Positions 16,396 through 48,105 of a stretch of 48,272 nucleotides of DNA are shown piece by piece. A program made the position numbers and the translations under genes. The stretch covers positions 1-48,272 of the forward strand of contig VMFQ01000016.1 of NCBI GenBank assembly GCA_007376125.1. Reading direction: 5' to 3'. The first letter of the stretch is position 1. Every line of letters begins with the position of its first letter. The notes under the pieces were generated by a model. That model did no database searches, had not been told where the DNA came from, and was given only the letters and a program-made list of their open reading frames with translations. Origin of the DNA: Parcubacteria group bacterium Gr01-1014_33. Its GTDB lineage: Bacteria > Patescibacteriota > Minisyncoccia > Sungbacterales > HO2-52-23.

Positions 16396-19300
16396 TCAAA
16401 CTACAAAATTGATAAGCTTATTCTGGACAAAAATAATTTTCTTCGGCTCTGTGGTAAGAAACTTTCGGACTTGTTCAATTTGCATTGCGGCATCTTTTGC
16501 CTCTTTTTCTTTGGCACCCATCGGAAGTGTTGCGCGCCCGCGCAATTTACCGTTTACTTGGATCACGAGTTCAAACGTGTCTTCTTGAATGAGCTTCGGA
16601 TTGTATTTAGGCCACAGCTCAAGATGAATAGACCGAAAGGTTGTAGGTTGTAGGTTGTAGGTTGTAGAAAAAATTCTTTGCCACAATTCTTCAGAAATGT
16701 GTGGCGCAAAAGGCGCAAGAAGTTTCAAGAAAACGTTTATATCCTCTCCGCTCACCTTCTCCTTGTTTGATTCAAACTCATTTAACAAAACCATAAGCGC
16801 CGAGATCGCGGTGTTGTATTGCAAATTCTCAATATCTTCGGTAACTTTTTTGGTTGTCTGATGCAGTATCTTTTGTATTTTTGATTTGGGATTTGGGACT
16901 TTTTTGGAAATTGGGATTTGGGATCTGAGATTTTGCGAGATTTGTACCTGACCAAACCTCCAGACGCGCTCAAGAAATCTGGTGATCCCCTTTATGCCCG
17001 TATCGCGAAAATCTCCCCCCTGTTCAAACGGCCCCAAAAACATAAGATACATCCGCAGAGCGTCCGCGCCGTAGGCGCGGATGTATTCATCCGGATTCAC
17101 GACATTCCCTTTGGACTTGGACATCTTGGCGCCGTCTTTGATTAAGAGGCCGTGCGCGCGAAATTTCGCAAACGGCTCTTCAAAGTGCGTAAGCCCCCAG
17201 TCGGAAAACACCATCGCGAGAAACCGCGAATACAAGAGATGCAGGACCGAGTGCTCCGCGCCGCCGATATACATGTGCACCGGAAGCCATTTTTTTGTAA
17301 TTGCCGGATTCCATGGTTTTTTCTCCTCGCGAACCGATGGATAACGCAAAAAATACCAGGCAGAATCCAAAAACGTATCCGAAACATCAGTTTCCCGCCT
17401 TGCCCACGATTTGCACTTTGGGCAACGGACTTTATAAAACCTTTCAACTGATGCAAGGGGGGATTTTCCCGTGCCCGTAGGACGAAATTTTTTAATGTAG
17501 GGCAACCGCACCGGCAAGTCCTTTTCCGGAACAGGATGCCATCCTAATCCGTCCGAAGTCGGACTTCCATCGGAAGTCCGACTTCGCTTTGCGCAATTTT
17601 CGCAAAAAATCATAGGAATTGGGGGCCCCCAGTAACGCTGGCGTGAAATCAGCCAATCGCGAAGGCGGTAATGTACAGTTCGTTTCCCTTTCACAAATTT
17701 CGTAATCTCCCATTTTGCTTTTTCAGAGTCCGTACCGGTAAATTTTCCTGAATTTATCAAAATGCCGGAATTTGTATGCACGCGTTGATGGAAAATTGAC
17801 GGGGCACTCGTCGTATCATACCTAAGCTCAATGGCGCGTCCAACTGCTTGCTTTAAAAAACGAATCCAATGATCATGTTCGTGATTATAGTTGTTCCGCT
17901 CTAGGTTCTCGAGAATTTCTCCTGCACTTACCCACTCCACTATGAAGTCTTCGTGTGTCTCAAGTTTTTGTTCCTGAACTGCAGTTGTTTTTAGTATCAC
18001 TAAAAAGCAGGTTGCCTTGGCAAAACGATCCACATTGCGAGGAATATTGTGATAATGAGCAAATGCCGTCTCAATCTGTTCAACATGAACGAAATCATAA
18101 TATCCGCTTTCCTCTTTTATCTCCCGCAAAATTCCTTTTTCAATATCTTCCCCCTCCTCTACTCCTCCGGAGAATAGTCCGTACCATTCTCGTTCTCCCT
18201 TTTTCCAATGGGCTATCGCATACTTTTGCGTTTCAGGATCAAAAACTACTCCGGAACCACCATCTCTGAATTCCTCTTTATTGCGTTTCTCGCCAGTTTC
18301 TGGAGCAACAATCTGACGAATCGGCAAATCAAACTTCTTTGCAAACTCAAAGTCGCGCTCGTCGTGTGCAGGAACTGCCATAATCGCGCCCGTGCCTATA
18401 TTACCCAGAACATAATCTGCAACCCAAATTGGAATCATTTCCCCATTTGCCGGATTGATTGCTTTTACTCCTTTTAGTTCAACTCCGGTTTTTTCTTTGC
18501 TCGCGGCAATTCGCTCTTCTTCAGATTTCGATTTCGCGTTTTGGATGTATCCTCGGACTTCCCCATAATTCATAATTCCTGATTCCTGATTCATCAGCAT
18601 CGGATGCTCCGGCGCCACCACCAAATACGTCGCCCCGAAAAGCGTATCCGCCCTTGTGGTAAATACCTCAATAAACGCTGACTCACGCTGACTGGACGCG
18701 GACTTACGCAGAATTTCCGTGTTAGTCCGCGTCGTGTCCGCGTAGTTCCGCGAGAGAGCGAACTTTATAAGTGCGCCCTCCGATCTCCCGATCCAATTCC
18801 TCTGCGCGATTTTTATCCGCTCGGACCAATCAATTTTTTCTAAATTCTTCAAAAGCCGTTCCGCATAATCAGTAATCTTAAAAAACCACTGCTCCAAATC
18901 TTTTTTGTGGACTTTTGATCCGCACCTCTCACATTCCCCGGAAATCACCTGCTCATCCGCAAGCACTGTTTTGCACGAAGGACACCAATTTACGGCTTGC
19001 TTCTTTCTATATGCGAGACCCTCTTTAAAGAGCCGCACAAAAATCCATTGAGTCCATTTATAGTATTCGGGATCGTACGTTTCAAGCCGCTCTTGCCACG
19101 CAAAGCCGTTTCCGATCATCTGGAGCTGGCGATAAAAATTCTTTTCGGTGATCCGCGAAAGTTCCATCGGATGTTTTCCGATTTTCAACGCATAATTTTC
19201 AGAATGTATTCCAAACCCGTCCAGCCCAATCGGCTCAAATACATCATACCCTTGCATCCGCTTAAAACGCCCATAAATATCCGCGCCGGTAAATGCATAC

Positions 19301-19485
19301 ATATTTCCCACATGAAGCCCTTCCGCCGATGGGTACGGAAACATCATGAGGTTATAAAATGGCTTTTTTGCGCGCGTCCCTATTCCGCGTCTTCGTGGTC
19401 GGGCAAGTAAATCCGGCTCATAGATTTTTCCCTTAAGCCAACGCGCTTGCCATTTGGATTCAATTTTTTGAGGGAAGTAACGCAT
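16396..19485 (-). CDS. leuS: Leucyl-tRNA synthetase with a nested Nudix domain and several short insertions
   Basis: HIGH-type motif PYPSAEGLHVGN, CP1 motifs TTRADTLFGATY and GTGAIMAVPAHDERDFEFA, RLRDWLISRQRYWG and KMSKSKGN. Start chosen at MRYFPQKIESKWQ. Confidence 0.9.
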   Translation of the reverse strand: MRYFPQKIESKWQARWLKGKIYEPDLLARPRRRGIGTRAKKPFYNLMMFPYPSAEGLHVGNMYAFTGADIYGRFKRMQGYDVFEPIGLDGFGIHSENYALKIGKHPMELSRITEKNFYRQLQMIGNGFAWQERLETYDPEYYKWTQWIFVRLFKEGLAYRKKQAVNWCPSCKTVLADEQVISGECERCGSKVHKKDLEQWFFKITDYAERLLKNLEKIDWSERIKIAQRNWIGRSEGALIKFALSRNYADTTRTNTEILRKSASSQRESAFIEVFTTRADTLFGATYLVVAPEHPMLMNQESGIMNYGEVRGYIQNAKSKSEEERIAASKEKTGVELKGVKAINPANGEMIPIWVADYVLGNIGTGAIMAVPAHDERDFEFAKKFDLPIRQIVAPETGEKRNKEEFRDGGSGVVFDPETQKYAIAHWKKGEREWYGLFSGGVEEGEDIEKGILREIKEESGYYDFVHVEQIETAFAHYHNIPRNVDRFAKATCFLVILKTTAVQEQKLETHEDFIVEWVSAGEILENLERNNYNHEHDHWIRFLKQAVGRAIELRYDTTSAPSIFHQRVHTNSGILINSGKFTGTDSEKAKWEITKFVKGKRTVHYRLRDWLISRQRYWGPPIPMIFCENCAKRSRTSDGSPTSDGLGWHPVPEKDLPVRLPYIKKFRPTGTGKSPLASVERFYKVRCPKCKSWARRETDVSDTFLDSAWYFLRYPSVREEKKPWNPAITKKWLPVHMYIGGAEHSVLHLLYSRFLAMVFSDWGLTHFEEPFAKFRAHGLLIKDGAKMSKSKGNVVNPDEYIRAYGADALRMYLMFLGPFEQGGDFRDTGIKGITRFLERVWRFGQVQISQNLRSQIPISKKVPNPKSKIQKILHQTTKKVTEDIENLQYNTAISALMVLLNEFESNKEKVSGEDINVFLKLLAPFAPHISEELWQRIFSTTYNLQPTTFRSIHLELWPKYNPKLIQEDTFELVIQVNGKLRGRATLPMGAKEKEAKDAAMQIEQVRKFLTTEPKKIIFVQNKLINFVV
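16639..16667. repeat. Tandem heptamer (GGTTGTA)x4 inside leuS
   Basis: Four perfect 7-nt units. Encodes TTYNLQPTT. Confidence 0.85.
16883..16944. repeat. Degenerate heptamer tract (GATTTGG-type) inside leuS
   Basis: gatttgggatttggga ... attgggatttgggatctgagattttgcgagatttg. Encodes QISQNLRSQIPISKKVPNPKSKIQ. Confidence 0.6.
17534..17586. repeat. Compound palindrome inserted in frame in leuS
   Basis: GGATGCCATCC, then GAAGTCGGACTTC and GAAGTCCGACTTC. Encodes RSRTSDGSPTSDGLGW between CENCA and HPVPEKDLPV. Confidence 0.6.
17790..18298 (-). other. Nudix hydrolase domain nested in the LeuRS CP1 domain
   Basis: Perfect Nudix box GGVEEGEDIEKGILREIKEESGY (Gx5Ex7REUxEExGU). It lies between the LeuRS segments FDLPIRQIVAPE and NSGILINSGKFTG. 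Confidence 0.7.
18565..18592. repeat. Tandem heptamers ATAATTC x2 and CTGATTC x2 inside leuS
   Basis: Direct reading. Encodes NQESGIMNY. Confidence 0.75.
18694..18733. repeat. Hairpin-forming insertion in leuS
   Basis: GACGCGGACT (18694..18703) pairs with AGTCCGCGTC (18724..18733). It lies within a ~75-nt extra segment encoding RNYADTTRTNTEILRKSASSQRESA, ahead of IEVFTTRADT. Confidence 0.5.
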
Positions 19486-19492
19486 AAAATAT

Positions 19493-19521
19493 AGTGTAGC
19501 CGCAATCCCTTGGCTTGACAA
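19493..19521 (-). promoter_or_regulatory. Sigma-70-like promoter for leuS, implying a near-leaderless mRNA
   Basis: Minus strand: TTGTCA-17 nt-TACACT, then 7 nt to the ATG at 19485. No SD sequence. Confidence 0.4.
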
Positions 19522-19588
19522 GCCGCGCATAGAACTTTATGGTAGACGTAAATAGTTCTCTTTTTTTCAGCATTGTGGGAGGAGTCGT

Positions 19589-35152: not shown

Positions 35153-36178
35153 TTAAGCGATTCCCACTCTTGCGCTCCCCTCTTCAAAAGAAATTTCGCG
35201 ATTTGTTTTTGTGGCGTCTTTCCCAAAATGAATACTCCGGGCGCGCACGTCTTTGAGAAGTTTCTTTTCCCAACGCCCAAGCAATATTTGCAATGCGTTG
35301 TCCGCTTCAATCGCAAGCATGATTATATCTTTGGGAGTAAGCCCAAGCTCCCGCCGCATTTCCTGGATATTTCGTATAAGCTCACGGATGATTCCCTCTT
35401 CTTTAAGTTCGGTGGTGATATTCATATCGAGCCGCATTTCTTTTCCAAACGTAATTTTTTTCACATTTATTTCTTCTTTTATTAGATTCAAGAGTTGGGA
35501 TTTTTTTCGTAATTCCGTATTTGTAATTCGTAATTCGGCGAGAGGTTGTCGCACCCGAATTCCCGCTTCCGCGCGAAGCCGGAGCGCATGAGAGGCGATT
35601 CTCCGAATACGCTCCATATCTTCTTCAAGTTCTTTTTTGATCGCGCCTTTGTTTACGCTTGGCCATGGTTCAAGATGCACGGACACTATTTTTTTGTCCG
35701 ATACTTCTTTGAAAATCATTTCCGCAAGAAACGGCGTTATGGGCGCGGTAAGACGGCTCAATCCCAAAAGCGCCTCTTGGAGCGCACGCAACGCCTGCCG
35801 TCCTTCGAGAGTGTGCGCCTTCATGCGTTCGCGCGATCTTCGCACATACCAAAGCGATAGATCCTGCACAAAATCAAAGAGCGCTTTTGTCGCGCGGTTG
35901 AGTGTATAATTTTCAAACGCATCCGTTACTTCGCGATTCGCGCTATTGAGCCGCGAGAGTATCCATTGATCCAGTGCACCACTGGAGAAGATAAAAGAGT
36001 GAAGCGGATTGAGTCTGCGCCGAATTTTGCGACAACCTCCATTGGATCTGGATAGTTTTTCAAGCGTTTGGACATTTTTGCCCCGTCTTGGGCAAGGATC
36101 GTGCCGTGCGCATTCACATGCCGATATGCGGTTTTCCCGAAAAGCGCCACTGCAAGCACTAAAAGTGAGTAAAACCAC
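35153..36178 (-). CDS. ileS: Isoleucyl-tRNA synthetase, anticodon-binding/C-terminal part (out of frame with the N-terminal part)
   Basis: True homology starts at ALDQWILSRLNSANREVTDAFENY...LSLWYVRRSRER (about 35965). The residues before that are an out-of-frame read of the N-terminal part. Confidence 0.8.
   Translation of the reverse strand: MVLLTFSACSGAFRENRISACECARHDPCPRRGKNVQTLEKLSRSNGGCRKIRRRLNPLHSFIFSSGALDQWILSRLNSANREVTDAFENYTLNRATKALFDFVQDLSLWYVRRSRERMKAHTLEGRQALRALQEALLGLSRLTAPITPFLAEMIFKEVSDKKIVSVHLEPWPSVNKGAIKKELEEDMERIRRIASHALRLRAEAGIRVRQPLAELRITNTELRKKSQLLNLIKEEINVKKITFGKEMRLDMNITTELKEEGIIRELIRNIQEMRRELGLTPKDIIMLAIEADNALQILLGRWEKKLLKDVRARSIHFGKDATKTNREISFEEGSARVGIA
35508..35538. 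repeat. Heptamer tract (CGTAATT-type) inside the ileS C-terminal part
   Basis: cgtaatt ccgtatt tgtaatt cgtaatt. Encodes ELRITNTELR. Confidence 0.7.
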
Positions 36179-38487
36179 CCGCGCGTCTGATCAAGTCCTT
36201 CGTCAATAAAATCTGCCGGGAATCCGATCCCCTTTTTCGGATCAAATATCTTTTTGTTCTCAAACGGATAATGCCATTGGCCGTATGGCATTGAGCCGGA
36301 TTCAAACCAGCAGTCAAACACTTCCGGTATCCGTTCATACACTCCGCCGCACACGCACGGGAATTGTATCGCATCAATAAACGGGCGATGTACGTCAACA
36401 ATGCCAAATCGGTTTCTAGGGATCTGCCGCACCTTCAATGGATATATTTCTCCATATCTCAAGAAATCCCGATACCTTTTCCCTTTACGAAGGTTCTTTG
36501 TTCCTTCATTGTCCAATCCTTGCCCTGCGGCGGCAAGCATCCATAAAGGAGCATCGTGACCCACAAAAAATATTGTTTTCCCTTTATACTGCCGTTCATA
36601 CTCTTCCAAGAGACCAAAGACGCGCGTTGCCACATCGCGTAAATGCTCACCCCCTTGCGGGCGTTTTGTAAACCACTCCCCGAATGAAGAAAAAAAATGT
36701 TCATACTCTTTTCCAGTTTTTCTCTCAAAAATACCGAAATGAATCTCACGCAATCGCTCATCCTCCTGTATCTCATTTACTGATAAGATTTTGGCGGCAA
36801 TCTTTGCGCTTTCCTTCGCCCGATTCACCGGAGAGCAAACGACCAAATCCGGCTTTATGCCAAATCGCAAGAACTTCTTTGCCGCCTGTTCCACATCACG
36901 ACGACCTTCCTCGGTCAGACCATATCCATCATTTCCACTTATTACTACTCCTTTTATATTCGTCTCGGCTCTGCCATGGCGCATAATAAAATATCTGTTT
37001 TGTGGTCTTCCAATTTTTTGCTCCAGTTCCTGAAGTGATCCTATTATTTCCTGTTTCCCGCATTTTTTGCACCGCCACACCGGCAAAGGCGCGCCCCAAA
37101 AACGCGAACGCGAAATCGCCCAATCGCGCGCGCCTTCAAGCCATTTTCCAAATCTCCCTTCTTTTATATGCTCCGGTACCCATGTGATTTTTTTGTTGAT
37201 CTTCACGAGATCATCGCGGATCGCCGCAACATTCACAAACCAAGAGACCGCCGCGTAGTTTAAAAGCGGCGTATCGCATCTCCAGCAATGCGGATAGGAG
37301 TGTGTAATTTCTTCTTTTGAAAAAAGCGTTCCGGATTTTTCAAGATACTCTATGATTTTTTTATCGGTCGCCTGCGGATCGCCTTTTGGTTTTACCGGAA
37401 GTCCTGCAAAGTCCTTTACTTCCGGCTTACATTTTCCGTCCATTGAAATATGCTGGACAAACGGAAGTTTTTTTTCTTTTCCCAAATTCATGTCTTCCTC
37501 GCCAAACGCAGGCGCAACATGCACAATTCCGGTTCCTTCGTCTGTGGTAACAAAATCTGCCGGATAGATCTTCCATCCGCTTTCGCGGTTTTCAAGTTTT
37601 GGATCGTTCGCGTAATAGTCAAAGAGGGGTTTATATTTTTTACCAATAAGTTTTTTTGTATCAATTTTTTCGATCTTCGCTCCCTCGGGGACTACTTTTG
37701 AATTTTTTGCCGCAATATAGGAATTCCCGTCTTCTTCAAATTTCACATACTCAATCCCCGGATGTACCGCAAGCGCAACATTTCCGGGAAGAGTCCAAGG
37801 AGTAGTAGTCCACGCAAGTAAAAATGTATTCGGCTCATCTTCAAGCTCAAATTTTACCATAACCGAAATATCTTTAATATCTTTATACCCTTGCGTTACT
37901 TCAAAATTTGCAAGCGTGGTCTCACAGCGCGGACACACATGCATTGACTTGTGTCCTTCATATATAAGGGTCTTGTCGTAAAGGGTCTTAAAAATCCACC
38001 AGATCGTTTCGGAATACTTCCAGTCCATTGTTTTGTAATCCCGCTCCATATCCACCCATCTGCCGATCCGCGGGATCACTTTTTTCCATTCGTCCGCGTA
38101 GCGCAACACGCCCTCTTCTGCGCGACGGTTAAATTTCCCTATTCCGTATGTTTCAATATCCTTTTTTGTTTTGAGTTTGAGTTCCTGCTCAATAATATTT
38201 TCCAAAGGAAGCCCGTGGCAATCCCATCCCCAACGCCGCTCCACATATTTCCCCTTCATTGTCTGATATCGCGGAATCGCGTCTTTTATAATAGAAGCCA
38301 AAATATGCCCGTAGTGAGGAAGTCCGGTGGCAAACGGCGGCCCGTCGTAAAACACAAAACGCGGAGCGTTTTTTCGTTTTTCCAAACTCTTCTCAAAAAT
38401 TTTGTTCTCCTCCCAAAACTTCAGTATCTCTTCCTCCCGCTCGCTAAAACTCTTTTGTTTTTTCTCTTCGTGTTTTTCTCCTTGCAT
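35926..38487 (-). CDS. ileS: Isoleucyl-tRNA synthetase (type 2), catalytic and editing part with a nested histidine-phosphatase domain
   Basis: GPPFATGLPHYGHIL, the CP1 editing region, WRCKKCG zinc knuckle and KMSKRLKNYPDP. The frame ends 13 codons after LLSSPVV. Confidence 0.88.
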   Translation of the reverse strand: MQGEKHEEKKQKSFSEREEEILKFWEENKIFEKSLEKRKNAPRFVFYDGPPFATGLPHYGHILASIIKDAIPRYQTMKGKYVERRWGWDCHGLPLENIIEQELKLKTKKDIETYGIGKFNRRAEEGVLRYADEWKKVIPRIGRWVDMERDYKTMDWKYSETIWWIFKTLYDKTLIYEGHKSMHVCPRCETTLANFEVTQGYKDIKDISVMVKFELEDEPNTFLLAWTTTPWTLPGNVALAVHPGIEYVKFEEDGNSYIAAKNSKVVPEGAKIEKIDTKKLIGKKYKPLFDYYANDPKLENRESGWKIYPADFVTTDEGTGIVHVAPAFGEEDMNLGKEKKLPFVQHISMDGKCKPEVKDFAGLPVKPKGDPQATDKKIIEYLEKSGTLFSKEEITHSYPHCWRCDTPLLNYAAVSWFVNVAAIRDDLVKINKKITWVPEHIKEGRFGKWLEGARDWAISRSRFWGAPLPVWRCKKCGKQEIIGSLQELEQKIGRPQNRYFIMRHGRAETNIKGVVISGNDGYGLTEEGRRDVEQAAKKFLRFGIKPDLVVCSPVNRAKESAKIAAKILSVNEIQEDERLREIHFGIFERKTGKEYEHFFSSFGEWFTKRPQGGEHLRDVATRVFGLLEEYERQYKGKTIFFVGHDAPLWMLAAAGQGLDNEGTKNLRKGKRYRDFLRYGEIYPLKVRQIPRNRFGIVDVHRPFIDAIQFPCVCGGVYERIPEVFDCWFESGSMPYGQWHYPFENKKIFDPKKGIGFPADFIDEGLDQTRGWFYSLLVLAVALFGKTAYRHVNAHGTILAQDGAKMSKRLKNYPDPMEVVAKFGADSIRFTLLSSPVVHWINGYSRGSIARIAK
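36410..37005 (-). other. Histidine phosphatase (PGM/PhoE-like) domain nested in IleRS
   Basis: All signature elements are present: IMRHGRAETN, CSPVNRAKESA, LREIHFGIFE, GGEHLRDVATR and FFVGHDAPL. It lies between IIGSLQELEQKIG and VDVHRPFIDAIQFPCVCGG. Confidence 0.7.
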
Positions 38488-38522
38488 AGGTACTATTCTA
38501 CCGATTTTCCGCCAAATAGCAA

Positions 38523-38547
38523 GAAAAAATGCCAAGCGAAGCTTGGC
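38523..38547 (-). terminator. Rho-independent terminator upstream of ileS
   Basis: Minus strand: GCCAAGC-TTC-GCTTGGC followed by ATTTTTTC. Confidence 0.6.
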
Positions 38548-38590: not shown

Positions 38591-39100
38591 TTACTTAGCA
38601 TCTGGAACGGAATCCTTGCCTAATTTTCTGTCAAGAAGTTCTTGCCCGCGCTTTTCCAACAATTCTCTGAACTCGCGCAGTGCATCATTCAGCTTTTCTA
38701 TACTCTCAATAGCTTCCTTCGCAACCTGTTCTGTTGCTCTCGATAAATCGCCAGAATTGGGAGCAGTATTTTGTCGTTCCGTTTTTCCGCCACTTTCTCC
38801 TTCAGCTCCATGCACCCATCTCGGGAAGGCAGCAAGAAGAGATAGCTCAAGAAGTCCTATTACAATGACACGGCTTACATTTCCGCTAAACCTGCCCAAT
38901 ACTCCATTCCCGATTGACTCACCTTCATAAGAGATAGATTTTACTTGATTTGAAGATAATACGCCGTTGTGTTTTTGGGTAATCTCTTCAATAGCCATTC
39001 TCATAGCATCAGGCGGTATTTCTGGCATAAGGAGATTTCCGGTTTTGTTTTGTTGCTCAAAAGAATCAGGATAGAATGATTCTGTCATAATTATAAGCAA
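38591..39100 (-). CDS. Hypothetical protein (about 165 aa)
   Basis: Long ORF with one central hydrophobic segment. The start is either 39100 or MTESF at 39088. Confidence 0.5.
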   Translation of the reverse strand: MLIIMTESFYPDSFEQQNKTGNLLMPEIPPDAMRMAIEEITQKHNGVLSSNQVKSISYEGESIGNGVLGRFSGNVSRVIVIGLLELSLLAAFPRWVHGAEGESGGKTERQNTAPNSGDLSRATEQVAKEAIESIEKLNDALREFRELLEKRGQELLDRKLGKDSVPDAK

Positions 39101-39787: not shown

Positions 39788-41500
39788 TCACATCTCCTCC
39801 GGAGCGTCAATGCCTAAAAGTGAAAGCCCTTTTGCGAGCGTGAGCGCGACAAGAGAAATAAGCGAGAGACGAAATTGTTTTTTTGCGGGATCGCTTTCCT
39901 GCAGAACCGGATGCGAATGATAAAATTCGTTCGCAAGTTTTGCAAGATTATAAAGGTAGTTCGCCAGGATATTAGGCATAAAATCTTCAAGCGCGTCTTC
40001 TATGGTTTCGCCCAACCGGAGCCCTGCGGCAACAAGCCGGTGTTCAAGAGAATCAAGTCCTATCGTGTTAGACACCGAGTGTTCAACATCTTGATCGGTT
40101 GTTTTACGCAAAATGCTTTTAAGCCGCGCATAAGTATATTGGATATACGGACCGGTATTCCCCTCAAACGAAAGCGCCTCGTCCCACTTGAATATAATAT
40201 CCGAGCGGCGGTTATGAGAAAGATCAAAATATTTTAATGCGCCAATCCCCACTTTGTGAGCCACTACATTTGCATTTTCCAAATCTGGATTTTTTTCTTT
40301 AATCACTTCCCGCGCGCGGTGAATCGCCTCATCGCAAACTGCCTCAAGCGAAATTATATTTCCCGCGCGCGTACTTATCGCGCCGGTCGGAAGCGACATA
40401 AAACCATATTCAACATGCTCGCTCTCATTCACTCCCTCAAATCTCAAGAGTTCAGCAACCCGAAATACCTGCTTGAAATGATGCGATTGGCGGACATCCA
40501 CAAGATATAAATTTTTCCAAAAGTTCCAGTGTTCTTTTCTATACTTAATAGTAGCGAGATCGCGCAAGAGATATGTGGACGCACCATCAGATTTAACAAG
40601 AATAGCTTGATCCAACCCTTCATTTTCTAAATCAACTATAACCGCTCCCTCTTCTGTTTTCTTTGCCACGCCTTTTTCTAGAGTAAGCGTAACAATCGCG
40701 GGCATATCGTTTTCATACGAGCTCTCGCCTTTGTGTTCGTCAAATGAAAGAAGCCCGAGACGCGAGGCACTCTCTTCAAGTTTTTCCATTGAAATCTCCA
40801 CCATCCATTGCCATATTTTCCGATTCTCGGTATCACCTTTTTCGAGCTTCGCAAATTCGGCTTTTCCAAACTCATTCGCATTTTCATCTTTGTTTGCCGT
40901 CTGATACAATACTTCAAGCTGGCTAAACGGATCTTCCTCTATTTTCTTTTTGGTGTCCTTATCCGCCTGTTTATACGCCCAAAGTAAAATCCCGAATTGC
41001 GTTCCCCAGTCGCCCACATGGGTATCCGAAACCGCATGATATCCTTGCGAGTCTAACGTCCGTTTGATTGCGTCTCCAATGACCGCGGATCGCAAGTGCC
41101 CGACGTGCGGCCGCTTGGCAATATTCAGCTGCAAATATTCAACCATTACTGTTTTGCCTTGCCCGTCTTTACTTTTGCCCCATTCATCAGGATTTTGTAA
41201 AACGCCTTCTATCCGCGCAAGCAATTCTTTATCTGATAGTATAAAATTTATAAACCCGGGGGGCACGACTTCAATTTTCCTAAGTTCCGGATTCTTTGCC
41301 TCAAGTTCCACAGAAAGAAGAGCCACAATTTCCATCGGGCTTTGTTTGAGAGTATGCGCCAAAATCAGCGCGGCGTTTGTCGCGTAATCCCCATGCTCCG
41401 GATTTTCCGGAATTTCAACCGAAAACTCGGGTATTGCAATATCCCCGAATTTATTTCGTATCGCTTCCGAAATTGCATTTTTGAGATTGGCGCGTAGCAT
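39788..41500 (-). CDS. argS: Arginyl-tRNA synthetase
   Basis: 570 aa with NIAKRPHVGHLRSAVIGD (HIGH-type), the catalytic core and the DALR anticodon-binding C-terminus. Confidence 0.92.
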   Translation of the reverse strand: MLRANLKNAISEAIRNKFGDIAIPEFSVEIPENPEHGDYATNAALILAHTLKQSPMEIVALLSVELEAKNPELRKIEVVPPGFINFILSDKELLARIEGVLQNPDEWGKSKDGQGKTVMVEYLQLNIAKRPHVGHLRSAVIGDAIKRTLDSQGYHAVSDTHVGDWGTQFGILLWAYKQADKDTKKKIEEDPFSQLEVLYQTANKDENANEFGKAEFAKLEKGDTENRKIWQWMVEISMEKLEESASRLGLLSFDEHKGESSYENDMPAIVTLTLEKGVAKKTEEGAVIVDLENEGLDQAILVKSDGASTYLLRDLATIKYRKEHWNFWKNLYLVDVRQSHHFKQVFRVAELLRFEGVNESEHVEYGFMSLPTGAISTRAGNIISLEAVCDEAIHRAREVIKEKNPDLENANVVAHKVGIGALKYFDLSHNRRSDIIFKWDEALSFEGNTGPYIQYTYARLKSILRKTTDQDVEHSVSNTIGLDSLEHRLVAAGLRLGETIEDALEDFMPNILANYLYNLAKLANEFYHSHPVLQESDPAKKQFRLSLISLVALTLAKGLSLLGIDAPEEM

Positions 41501-42886: not shown

Positions 42887-43375
42887 ATGTCCGACCTCTC
42901 TGTCAATCGCCGCGCACATTTTGACTACGAAATCCTCGCAACCTACGAGGCGGGAATTGAGTTGCTCGGATTTGAAGTAAAAGCGGTGAAAACCGGGCGG
43001 ATGAATTTGGCTGGGGCATTTGTCGTAATCCGCGGAGAAGAGGCCCACCCCCACACTAAAACGCAAAAACGTTTTAGTGTGGGGGCATGGCTCTTAAATG
43101 CGGCGATTGCCCCGTATCAGCCGAAAAATACGCCTGCGGATTATGAGCCCACGCGCTCGCGGCGGCTACTTTTGCATAAATCCGAAATTAAAGAACTACT
43201 TGGCCAGACAAGCCAAAAAGGTTTGACAATCATACCCTTAAAAGTGTATACTAAAAGAAATCGCGTGAAGGTCTTGATCGGCATTGCCCGCAGTAAAAAG
43301 AAAGGCGACAAGCGGGAAGTTATCAAACGAAGAGAAGCATCGCGCGAGATTGATCGCACGTTGAAACGGGGGTGA
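42887..43375 (+). CDS. smpB: SsrA-binding protein with a 14-aa insertion
   Basis: NRRAHFDYEILATYEAGIELLGFEVK and GARLLLHKSEIKEL-type motifs. tmRNA lies immediately downstream. Confidence 0.92.
   Translation: MSDLSVNRRAHFDYEILATYEAGIELLGFEVKAVKTGRMNLAGAFVVIRGEEAHPHTKTQKRFSVGAWLLNAAIAPYQPKNTPADYEPTRSRRLLLHKSEIKELLGQTSQKGLTIIPLKVYTKRNRVKVLIGIARSKKKGDKREVIKRREASREIDRTLKRG
43048..43085. repeat. Perfect 16-bp-stem hairpin inserted in frame in smpB
   Basis: CCCCCACACTAAAACG-CAAAAA-CGTTTTAGTGTGGGGG. It encodes the extra HPHTKTQKRFSVG between GEEA and WLLNAAIAPY. Confidence 0.8.
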
Positions 43376-43727
43376 CGGGATTCGACGGGTTTTGACCTTA
43401 TGGAAATCAGGTGGGAGAAGTACGGTATCTCCATAAATCTTCCGTACATCCAAATAAGTGCAAACTTATTTAACTCTTTTGGACGCCAACCCGCAATGGC
43501 GGTAGCGTAACAAAAGATCCCTATTCCGCCTCGCGCGGAGTAGCATCGGCTGGCTCACGCTCGTATGGCCAATCACCGGTGTTATATATCGAGCTTGACT
43601 CTTCCGACACTTGATGAGAAGAGCGACCCATATCAAGTAAATCCGTTCTCGCTTCGGCAAGGACTAAACCTGTATAAATTTCCATTGGGGAAAAATTCGG
43701 ATGGGAGTCCGACTCTCCCCACCTCCA
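43368..43727 (+). ncRNA. ssrA: tmRNA (SsrA)
   Basis: 5' end GGGGGTGACGGGATTCGACGGG. 3' T-arm GGGAG-TCCGACT-CTCCC plus acceptor CACCTCC-A. G3:U wobble in the acceptor stem. Tag ORF GCA..TAA (43460..43510) encodes ANLFNSFGRQPAMAVA. Confidence 0.9.
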
Positions 43728-43910
43728 CTTCATACAGAAAATAGAATAAAAAGTGAACTCCATTTTCTATTTTCTCACTTTCCAATCCAAAAACGCTACC
43801 GAATAAACCCCGCGCCTTTCTTTGCGCAGTACATACCGCACATTACTTTTATAAATTGAACGGGAGATATTAGAGAAGCCGCTACTTGCACAAGGAAAGG
43901 TGCGGGGTAA

Positions 43911-45918: not shown

Positions 45919-46143
45919 TTAAGATTGCATTTTTGCAACTCCTGTTTCTTCTTTTACTTCGCGCCGCACCGTCTTTTCTGTGGTCTCTCCTTTTTCAATA
46001 TGCCCTTTTGGAAAATCCCAATGGCCCAGTTTTGACTTTCCTGTTTTTTTATCCGCCTCGTCGGTATGTTGCAAAAGGAGATATTCTCTTCCCTTTTTTG
46101 TTTCGCGAAATATGACTGCACCGGCAGAACGTTCTATTGGCAT
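45919..46143 (-). pseudogene. N-terminal half of a Nudix hydrolase, truncated just after the Nudix box
   Basis: SAGAVIFRE...GHWDFPKGHIEKGETTEKTVRREVKEETGV, then AKMQS-stop. The junction carries the direct repeat AAAAATGCAA x2. Confidence 0.6.
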
Positions 46144-46297: not shown

Positions 46298-48022
46298 CTA
46301 TCTTTCCTTAAGAAATTTAAGCATCTCCTTCAAAGGATGCGCATTGATAATATCTCCGCGTGTAGCCCACCCCCGGCGGGCTTGTCCGATACCCATTTCC
46401 AGATACTTGAAATGATTCACCGAATGTGCGTCCGAATCAATCGCCATCTTCACGCCTGCGTCCACGCACTTTCGCACATATTCATCTTTTATATCAAGCC
46501 GATCCGGATATGCGTCAATTTCAAGCACAGTGTTGGTACGACGCGCCGCTTTAATGATCTCGTCAATATCAAGCTCAATAGGTCCGCGCTTATGTATCAC
46601 CCGCGTGGTTAAGTGAAAAATAATGTCCACATTCGGATTTTCCATTGCGCGGATTATACGTTTTGTCTGTTCGGCGCGCGAAAGGGTAAAGTGGCTATGC
46701 GCCGCCGCGCCCGCTACATCAAGTTTTTTAAGCACGTCATCTTCAATATCAAGTGTTCCGTTTTTCATGATATTTACCTCCGCGCCTTTCAAAACTTTAA
46801 ACTTTAAATCTTTATACTTGCGATTGATTTTATCAATCGCCTCCATCTGCCGTAAAAGTTTTTTTTCGTCAGCCCCACCGGTCATCGCAAGCGACTTCGT
46901 ATGATCGGTGATCGCGATATAGCGAAGTCCCGCTGACATGGCGGCGCGCGCCATTTCCTCAATGGAATTTTCCCCGTCGGTCCAATCCGTTTGCATTTGG
47001 AGATCGCCTTGTATATCGCTGTAGCCGATTAATCTTGGCAATTTATTTTCTTGCGCCGCCTTTATTTCTCCCATATTCTCCCGCATTTCCGGCTCAATAT
47101 AGCGTAGTCCCAACTTTTCGTACACCTCTTCTTCCGTTCTCCCCGCAATCATCTTCTCTCCTTTGAAAAGCCCATATTCATTCAGTTTCCACCCTTTTTG
47201 TATCGCGATTTCGCGAAGCGCGATATTGTGCTCCTTTGATCCGGTAAAGTAATTCAACGCCGCGCCCCATGATTCTTTTGGCACCACTCGGAGATCCGCA
47301 TCAAGCCCGTTTTTTAATTTTACCAGGGTTTTGGTGGTGCCTTTCGCGTATACATGCGCTATGAACGGCAGTTTCAAAAATTGTTCCATCACACGCGCCG
47401 GTCTCTTCGAAGCCGCGAGAATATCTATATCTCCTATGGTTTCTTTCCTGCGGCGCACTGATCCGGCGACAAGCGCGCGCGCTACTTCGGGGAACAATTG
47501 AATCATTTTTTCAAGCGAACGAATTTCGGCAAGCGCGAACCCAAGCGCTTGCCTGCCGCCGGATTGTTTCAGAAATTCAATCCCCTTTAAAATTTTTTGT
47601 TCTGATTTTTCTCCAAAGCGTTCCAACGCGCGAATTTTTCCGGCGCGCGCGGCTTTTTCTAAATCGTTTACTGCGCGAACCCGAAGTTTTTCCCAAAGCA
47701 GTTTTACCATTTTGGGACCCACGCCTTCAATCGCAACAAGTCCCAACACGTCTATCGGATATTTTCTCTTAAAATCGCGGTACTCTTTGAAACTGCCTTT
47801 TTTAAAGAGTTCCTCAATATGCCCGGCAATGCCTTTGCCCACTCCGGGGATTTCCATGAGCGCGTCCGTTCCTCCGGTTTTGTAAATCTCCTCTGCCTCG
47901 CGCGCATACGTCTCAATTCCAAGCGCCGCCGCTTCGTATGCCTGCGGTTTGAACGAAACACCTTCCATTTCAAAAAACGCCGCTATCTCCCGAAGGATTT
48001 TTAAGATTTCTCGGTTGGTCAT
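46298..48022 (-). CDS. polX: Family X DNA polymerase with a C-terminal PHP domain
   Basis: HhH motifs IPGVGKGIA and IEGVGPKM, the pol-beta NT motif GSVRRRKETIGDIDIL, and PHP motifs ITDHT and AIDSDAH. Start at MTNREIL. Confidence 0.88.
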   Translation of the reverse strand: MTNREILKILREIAAFFEMEGVSFKPQAYEAAALGIETYAREAEEIYKTGGTDALMEIPGVGKGIAGHIEELFKKGSFKEYRDFKRKYPIDVLGLVAIEGVGPKMVKLLWEKLRVRAVNDLEKAARAGKIRALERFGEKSEQKILKGIEFLKQSGGRQALGFALAEIRSLEKMIQLFPEVARALVAGSVRRRKETIGDIDILAASKRPARVMEQFLKLPFIAHVYAKGTTKTLVKLKNGLDADLRVVPKESWGAALNYFTGSKEHNIALREIAIQKGWKLNEYGLFKGEKMIAGRTEEEVYEKLGLRYIEPEMRENMGEIKAAQENKLPRLIGYSDIQGDLQMQTDWTDGENSIEEMARAAMSAGLRYIAITDHTKSLAMTGGADEKKLLRQMEAIDKINRKYKDLKFKVLKGAEVNIMKNGTLDIEDDVLKKLDVAGAAAHSHFTLSRAEQTKRIIRAMENPNVDIIFHLTTRVIHKRGPIELDIDEIIKAARRTNTVLEIDAYPDRLDIKDEYVRKCVDAGVKMAIDSDAHSVNHFKYLEMGIGQARRGWATRGDIINAHPLKEMLKFLKER

Positions 48023-48105
48023 AGAGTAATCGCAAATATACGAATGTAAGAGTAATATACGAATATACAAATCCTTTCTCATTCGTATATTTGCGTTTGA
48101 TTCGT
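48023..48105 (-). repeat. 85-nt structured leader element, copy B (directly upstream of polX, inverted relative to copy A)
   Basis: The reverse complement reads acgaatcaaacgcaaatatacgaatg...cattcgtatatttgcgattactct-ATG. The outer ~26 nt on each side are nearly identical to copy A. Confidence 0.75.

Follow-up and report, generated by a model that had tools for sequence, protein, structure and literature searches.

A histidine phosphatase domain nested in the isoleucyl-tRNA synthetase of Patescibacteria and its free-standing counterpart upstream of ileS

Aminoacyl-tRNA synthetases (aaRSs) are among the best-studied enzymes, and additional catalytic domains within their cores, which are seldom found, tend to be informative. 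The classical inserted accessory catalytic module is the CP1 editing domain of the isoleucyl-, valyl- and leucyl-tRNA synthetases (IleRS, ValRS and LeuRS), a hydrolytic domain that is nested in the Rossmann-fold core. NCBI curators also recognize an IleRS with a nested N-acetyltransferase (NF040702, 'ileS_w_GNAT'). Among histidine phosphatases, the broad-specificity enzyme PhoE (YhfR) of Bacillus stearothermophilus (1H2E/1EBB) is a short, stand-alone protein of ~200 amino acids (aa), and the Rv2228c-type bifunctional RNase H/acid phosphatase (NF005567) provides a precedent for a phosphatase of this kind fused to a nucleic-acid enzyme. Here we analyze a 48,272-nucleotide stretch of DNA (contig VMFQ01000016.1, assembly GCA_007376125.1; hereafter the window) from Parcubacteria group bacterium Gr01-1014_33, in which ileS, the gene for IleRS, contains a complete histidine-phosphatase (HP) domain in frame. 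This domain was first noticed in an analysis by a model that saw only the sequence and its open reading frames (ORFs) (the original prediction).

The main ileS ORF is at 35926..38535 on the reverse strand (-), as are all parts of ileS given below. It encodes 869 aa, or 853 aa from the ATG at 38487. The Pfam family tRNA-synt_1 identifies the product as IleRS (3e-130), and PF00300 (His_Phos_1) is nested inside that match at aa 516-682 of the 869-aa ORF (E=1.1e-31; 110.5 bits versus a gathering threshold of 21.7). The inserted segment alone matches PF00300 with 5e-33 and 114.9 bits. Comparison with P0275, a close relative that is insert-free and in which the corresponding junction reads ...IGSLEELKMKQGKSG|DIPRNRDGEIDLHRPYID..., places the edges of the domain at approximately 36424..37008, or aa ~494-688 of 853 (~195 aa). 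The bounds proposed originally, 36410-37005, were thus essentially exact. The accompanying claim that these flanks are normally joined by a short linker in type-2 IleRS also holds, as they are only 6-15 residues apart in insert-free IleRS.

The insert contains the catalytic signature of a branch 1, PhoE/CobC-like histidine phosphatase. All of the motifs named in the original prediction are in frame: the catalytic RHG (R503-H504-G505; 36973-36981), SPVNRAKES with R556 (36808-36834), LREIHFG with E581 (36733-36753), GGEHLRDVATR with G613-E614 and R622 (36622-36654), and FFVGHDAPLW with the distal H644 (36541-36570). In a sequence search of the PDB, B. stearothermophilus PhoE (1EBB/1H2E) is the best match (7e-12), and a phosphoglycerate mutase entry (9MMH), PspA and CobC rank after it. 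Residues R503/H504, N510, R556, E581 and H644 align to PhoE R9/H10, N16, R59, E83 and H151. An AlphaFold2 model of the insert, built on a 96-sequence alignment, has a mean predicted local distance difference test score (pLDDT) of 93.0 and a predicted template modeling score (pTM) of 0.90. A Foldseek comparison of this model with the PDB gives 302 matches at E<=1e-3. PhoE (1H2E) is at the top (TM 0.73; root-mean-square deviation 2.3 A over 175 columns; 28% identity) and CobC, PspA and Rv2419c come next. The insert is therefore predicted, with confidence, to have the alpha/beta fold of the histidine phosphatase superfamily. Profile search and structure prediction had both been suggested as checks on the domain, and both bear it out, well past what chance would give.

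The host protein is a type-2 IleRS whose synthetic and editing motifs are intact. It passes the TIGR00392 ileS equivalog of NCBIfam (722 bits versus a cut-off of 621), and an AlphaFold model of the 853-aa product (pLDDT 90.5, pTM 0.88) is closest to type-2 IleRS structures (E ~1e-66, compared to ~1e-47 or weaker for type-1 enzymes). The first host segment (37009..38487; aa 1-493 from the ATG at 38487) contains the HIGH motif as PHYGH (38305-38319) and, in CP1, the editing motifs WTTTPWTLPGN (37780-37812) and GTGIVHVAPAFG (37501-37536). It also supplies the first part of a small zinc knuckle, WRCKKCGK (37054-37077). A motif check in the translation likewise finds WTTTPW and GTGIVHVAP. The second host segment (35926..36423) contains ..IPRNRFGIVDVHRPFID, the flank VDVHRPFID..PCVCGG, the second half of the zinc knuckle, PCVCGG (36343-36360), the core motif FDCWFESG (36295-36318), and the KMSKS motif as KMSKR (36064-36078). 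Across 85 aligned sequences, the HIGH, KMSKS and CP1 editing motifs do not vary.

The HP domain enters the host between the Cys pairs of the zinc knuckle (WRCKKCGK ... PCVCGG), with the core motifs WGAPLPVW on one side and FDCWFESG on the other. From published nomenclature, which divides these insertions into the CP core, CP1, CP2 and CP3 (PMC11685878), and from general knowledge of class Ia enzymes, we infer that the loop bearing the insert is the CP3 region of the Rossmann-fold core. All four zinc-knuckle cysteines are kept in 48 of 74 species; the other 26 have lost all four.

The nested HP domain is a feature of a large, uncultivated clade and is not private to the genome in the window. 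In a scan of one genome per GTDB species with a single-protein query of 278 aa (the insert plus its flanks), the whole query was matched in one piece, at 36-46% identity, in at least 80 genomes. All of these are metagenome-assembled genomes of Patescibacteria, also known as the candidate phyla radiation (CPR), and include Taylorbacteria, Lloydbacteria, Nomurabacteria, Paceibacterota and Parcubacteria. An exhaustive search with the insert against 1.84 billion representatives clustered at 50% identity gave a similar picture: 83 of the best 150 matches are IleRS with the HP domain at the same position. In a whole-protein search, PF00300 is present in 118 of the 119 non-self clusters among the matches listed, and the closest proteins among those matches are from Candidatus Sungbacteria (65% identity). 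At this site, relatives carry the same enzymatic domain or else a short linker, and an equivalent non-enzymatic segment, which would have undercut the original prediction, was not seen among them.

The same junctions are found in more than 190 independent assemblies. They occur in at least 80 genomes, and also in 18 loci from metagenomes and in 118 clusters of proteins. Recurrence on this scale indicates that the insert is not an assembly chimera, and we reject that explanation, the possibility of which had been raised at the outset. The insert could instead be a selfish element, such as an intein-like mobile element that is excised during protein maturation. The presence of the same HP domain at several sites of essential genes would fit such an element, and the window ileS does have one assembly-like or mutational lesion elsewhere. 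However, Pfam detects no Hint/intein or homing-endonuclease domain in the ileS ORF. Furthermore, the junction columns are variable, with no conserved C/S/T nucleophile for splicing: near the C-terminal junction there is a PHN, PRN in the window, followed by variable residues. Taken together, an artefact or selfish element is scarcely credible as the source of the domain.

The lesion, which was not part of the original prediction, is downstream of the insert. At 35965..35985, with a junction near 35974-35977, ~46 conserved codons are gone and the frame is shifted. The missing segment corresponds to residues 862-906 of L002 (RAESLNLSEKGV...SSNI), is nearly invariant in 84 relatives, and would follow LLSSPVV. 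The 853-aa product ends at a premature stop, with LLSSPVVH plus 15 out-of-frame residues. The anticodon-binding and C-terminal domains fall in a separate ORF (35153..36178, -); this C-terminal remainder (35153..35977, in the other frame, from ALDQWILSRLN) is recognized by Pfam as Anticodon_1 (4.9e-31) and DUF5915 (4.2e-17) and by BLASTP to relatives. The junction string CAGTGGTGCA is readable in both frames, as might be expected had a deletion occurred between short repeats. A genuine deletion, a minority variant and an assembly error are all possible origins of the lesion. It is ~450 nt from the insert, and the finding of the HP domain is unaffected.

Disruption of ileS is peculiar to the window and is not a property of the architecture. 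Where the contig is long enough, ileS with a nested HP domain in relatives is a single open frame of 1130-1270 aa, and the window ileS departs from this. We considered that ileS might be naturally split in relatives, as a first protein search with the 278-aa query gave fragments of at most 485 aa, but the intact ORFs of 1130-1270 aa rule this out. At locus L001 (4337-7857 of a 733-kb contig with the same synteny), an ileS containing the HP domain is called as four fragments of 489, 195, 113 and 186 aa. This is probably due to long-read indel errors rather than to a split gene.

Many Patescibacteria encode the same phosphatase as a separate protein. The remaining top matches to the insert are stand-alone proteins of ~190-210 aa that have the same signature, including the same C-terminal extension, and context look-ups place their genes directly upstream of a class I synthetase gene. 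On long contigs, the HP gene is exactly between the genes for ArgRS and for an IleRS that has no insert (931-954 aa), and the gaps are 1-11 nt long. The genes of this region are arranged as PolX, NUDIX, L20, L35, IF3, SmpB, ArgRS, HP, IleRS, RecO, DUF11-like, ProRS. The window keeps that order for the genes in common: PolX, a truncated NUDIX, SmpB, ArgRS, IleRS, RecO, DUF11-like and ProRS. ArgRS (39788..41500, -) is the upstream neighbor of ileS in the window, whereas in relatives with the free-standing form the HP gene sits between argS and ileS.

A metagenome scan seeded with the profile of the free-standing HP alone recovered 80 loci, 62 free-standing and 18 nested. Wherever at least 400 nt of downstream sequence was present (53 of the free-standing loci), IleRS was downstream on the same strand. 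The distance from HP to IleRS was at most 220 nt in 50 of these 53, and in the majority the two genes overlap or are within 10 nt of each other. The end of ArgRS was at most 300 nt upstream of the free-standing HP in 42 of 54 loci, and ArgRS was upstream of an ileS with a nested HP in 49 of 63 evaluable loci. The nested copy was the sole HP domain in all 80 nested genome loci examined, with no free-standing copy within 4 kb on either side. In the window, a six-frame profile search gives the nested copy only, with no HP remnant in the 1.3-kb spacer between ArgRS and IleRS; a 169-aa ORF in that spacer (38591-39100) has no Pfam match. The two forms are complementary at the locus, and thus the nested HP domain is the fused equivalent of a gene that travels with ileS. 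At two loci (L091 and L092, 4597-5959, from a Nealsonbacteria-type genome), an RVT_1 reverse transcriptase and bAvd, which are hallmarks of a diversity-generating retroelement, are found between ArgRS and the HP-IleRS pair.

Based on these results, we propose that the HP domain is a conserved, catalytically active partner module of IleRS, which in the window is nested within it; we assign this a probability of about 0.7. In many lineages of Patescibacteria, an HP gene of ~195 aa is directly upstream of ileS, a few bases apart or overlapping, and this layout would have come first. In the large group of Paceibacteria that includes the genome in the window (Sungbacteria, Taylorbacteria, Lloydbacteria and others), there is no separate gene, and the HP domain is inside IleRS. 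The domain is predicted to be an active phosphomonoesterase, with His504 as the nucleophile that forms a phospho-His504 intermediate and Glu581 as the proton donor (acid/base). It would serve as an accessory to IleRS, produced with it at a constant 1:1 ratio (through coupling in an operon at first and through fusion later), and would not be needed for aminoacylation itself. We suspect that the likeliest substrate classes are a nucleotide-type phosphomonoester that arises or binds at the synthetase, or tRNA with a phosphorylated 3' end.

The pattern of conservation argues for retained catalysis in the nested copies. In 74 species, the catalytic R, H, R, E (of GGE), R and H are present in every case, the G of RHG in 73, the proton-donor E in 72 and the N in 71, while the remainder of the domain averages ~40% identity. 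An alternative is that the insert is catalytically dead and serves only as a structural scaffold or as a module that binds, for instance, the tRNA backbone or a partner protein. The residue following the distal His, which is E, D or N in nested copies instead of the Gly of free-standing ones, would fit this alternative, and the insertion of multiple copies in one protein (P0205, below) could suggest a binding role. However, the superfamily's catalytic residues would hardly be kept in 71-74 of the 74 species, and in the multi-copy proteins as well, if catalysis had been lost. We consider a dead insert very improbable.

The domain has been gained at other sites and has also been lost. The IleRS of P0082 has an HP domain at the same site as the window and a further copy in the linker that leads to the anticodon-binding domain. 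The IleRS of P0112 (locus L173, 5001-9260) has two copies at two other sites and is found in six assemblies, on contigs of up to 1.06 Mb where its genomic surroundings are different. Four copies are present in P0205, a ValRS. Copies 1-3 keep RHG, R, E and H, and the fourth, which is cut off at the end of the sequence, still has RHG and R. The IleRS of P0244 (1352 aa) has the HP domain at the usual site and an extra insert of ~190 aa in the CP1 region, at about aa 250-440. This extra insert has no Pfam match; it carries an HSLGA motif and is possibly a small alpha/beta-hydrolase. A neighbor-joining (NJ) tree of the HP domain is star-like and without support values. In an NJ tree of the hosts (IleRS with the insert removed), all 85 nested hosts and 8 of the free-standing type are in one superclade and 21 of the free-standing type are apart, which, in a tree that likewise lacks support values, hints at more than one change between the nested and free-standing states.

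The most serious competitor of a partner module is a metabolic passenger. The HP domain could be a housekeeping sugar-phosphate phosphatase of the GpmB/PhoE type, or a short phosphoglycerate mutase, that is functionally unrelated to IleRS, was inherited as its neighbor, moved by accident into a tolerant surface loop, and was kept for its own enzymatic activity. The best NCBIfam similarities of the domain include archaeal short dPGM, GpmB and PspA, and the names given to relatives by JGI are 'probable phosphoglycerate mutase' or 'PhoE'. One free-standing homologue (P0073) is in a sugar-metabolism context, with a ROK kinase, a HAD protein and GlmS, and IleRS tolerates loss of the domain (P0275). 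Moreover, aaRSs are permissive as insertion hosts (PMC13114784). A passenger does not readily account for the linkage of all 53 evaluable free-standing loci to ileS across divergent lineages, or for the complementarity of the nested and free-standing forms. Independent insertions at other sites of IleRS, and up to four in a ValRS, would also be unexpected for a single-copy metabolic enzyme, and the score for the dPGM equivalog is far short of its cut-off (76.7 versus 225 bits for dPGM_arch). We think it unlikely, although worth serious consideration, that the domain is a passenger.

Several observations weigh against the proposal that the HP domain is an active partner of IleRS. Its activity and its substrate are both predictions. 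None of the NCBIfam equivalog cut-offs is reached, neither for RNase H/acid phosphatase (79.9 versus 326 bits) and CobC (TIGR03162; 77.9 versus 162.9) nor for the other dPGM-type models, GpmB (43.1 versus 261) and PRK01295 (37 versus 316). The domain is thus best described as a generic short branch-1 histidine phosphatase with no assigned specificity. P0073 is beside a ROK kinase, with no aaRS neighbor. Gene order in the streamlined genomes of the CPR can outlast any functional link. P0275 (locus L083, 57-2969), which is sister to Sungbacteria P0212, has lost the HP domain cleanly (KQGKSG|DIPRNRDGEIDLHRP), which indicates that IleRS works without the domain and that the domain would be an accessory not required for charging. 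A single origin of the nested state is not evident from the NJ trees. Lastly, the ileS allele in the window, as assembled, cannot give a full IleRS and may not make a functional enzyme. The original prediction had suggested a lineage-specific coupling of aminoacylation to the hydrolysis of nucleotides or phosphoesters. The link between phosphatase and synthetase stands, given that the HP gene is directly upstream of ileS elsewhere in Patescibacteria and that both forms are never found at one locus. A biochemical coupling of the two reactions is a hypothesis beyond that link: the P0275 enzyme works without the domain, and a housekeeping phosphatase that simply accompanies ileS is an alternative.

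A second class Ia synthetase in the window hosts a different phosphohydrolase, as the original prediction maintained. LeuRS (16396..19530, -; 1044 aa) has a NUDIX domain nested after its CP1 editing domain, at ~17899-18249 (-; aa 428-544; PF00293, 4e-9), with a complete NUDIX box, GGVEEGEDIEKGILREIKEESGY (18100-18168, -). By similarity to PDB entries, it is of the generic MutT type. It is plausible that an HP domain in IleRS and a NUDIX domain in LeuRS in one window are not a coincidence, with the LeuRS side examined within the window. A broader idea would be that the IleRS-linked HP domain is a dedicated class Ia accessory and not a passenger. For example, it might strip a 2'- or 3'-terminal phosphate from damaged or toxin-modified tRNA for charging, or break down an inhibitor that mimics the adenylate or a nucleotide by-product that is phosphorylated. 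Together with the NUDIX domain of LeuRS, the N-acetyltransferase of GNAT-IleRS and the extra insert of P0244, it might then belong to an unrecognized class of cis-acting repair or detoxification modules tethered to aaRSs in Patescibacteria. We regard this idea as speculative and rather doubtful.

Other genes of the window bear on its synteny and on its integrity. A 74-aa ORF with a NUDIX box, GHIEKGETTEKTVRREVKEETGV (45919-46143, -), adjoins the PolX gene (46298-48082). Relatives have a NUDIX gene of 151-153 aa at that position, and thus the ORF in the window looks truncated; it may be the second broken gene of the window. SmpB (42887-43375, +) is directly followed by the gene for tmRNA (43368-43728), with a tag of ANLFNSFGRQPAMAVA and an overlap of a few bases between the two.

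Nested accessory domains in class Ia synthetases are already known. What is new is a conserved nested histidine phosphatase with an operonic free-standing counterpart. In the open-access full-text literature, we found no account of a histidine phosphatase within IleRS or adjacent to it, of an HP-ileS operon, or of a LeuRS with a NUDIX domain. The architecture is visible in public databases, where precomputed Pfam domains list PF00133 and PF00300. NCBI names the nested-HP proteins only 'class I tRNA ligase family protein', and thus their annotation could be improved. The combined signals of gene fusion and gene neighborhood predict a functional partnership between the HP domain and IleRS that is apparently undescribed. 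Should tRNA ends, nucleotides or synthetase inhibitors prove to be its targets, the domain would represent a new accessory function for the translation apparatus and might shed light on the ways in which minimal-genome organisms safeguard or adjust translation. If it is a mere passenger, it would still illustrate clearly how, in nature, an entire enzyme can pass from the gene upstream into a loop of the adjacent protein.

Comparison with described systems indicates where the domain and its host are conventional and where they are not. The host is most similar to type-2 IleRS (the eukaryote-like, mupirocin-resistant type), with the best matches to Priestia megaterium IleRS2 (8C8U/8C9D), the yeast enzyme (8WND/7D5C), Thermus IleRS (1ILE) and also that of Candida. 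The structural match to these enzymes, TMq 0.61-0.70, is for a query of which the insert is 23%, and the host in the window has a C-terminal DUF5915 domain. None of the solved IleRS structures has a domain in the loop that bears the HP domain. The domain itself is like PhoE in its short form and its catalytic set, but PhoE is stand-alone whereas the HP domain in the window is embedded in IleRS. It also has an extra C-terminal extension of ~30 aa, common to free-standing CPR relatives, and D, E or N following the distal His where PhoE has Gly. Its top similarities in NCBIfam, both below the cut-offs, are to the Rv2228c-type enzyme (2e-22) and the CobC alpha-ribazole phosphatase (6e-22). In Rv2228c the phosphatase is joined to its partner end to end, whereas the HP domain in the window is nested. 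NCBIfam has no model equivalent to NF040702 for IleRS with an HP domain. Like the IleRS in the window, the NF040702 enzymes have an extra nested enzyme, but the inserted fold differs, and the window protein reaches 281 bits for that model, whose cut-off is 1999. The CP1 editing domain is likewise hydrolytic and nested, but it is universal, acts on aminoacyl-tRNA and has another fold. The IleRS in the window keeps CP1 intact, and the HP domain is a second, lineage-specific nested enzyme, located in another loop.

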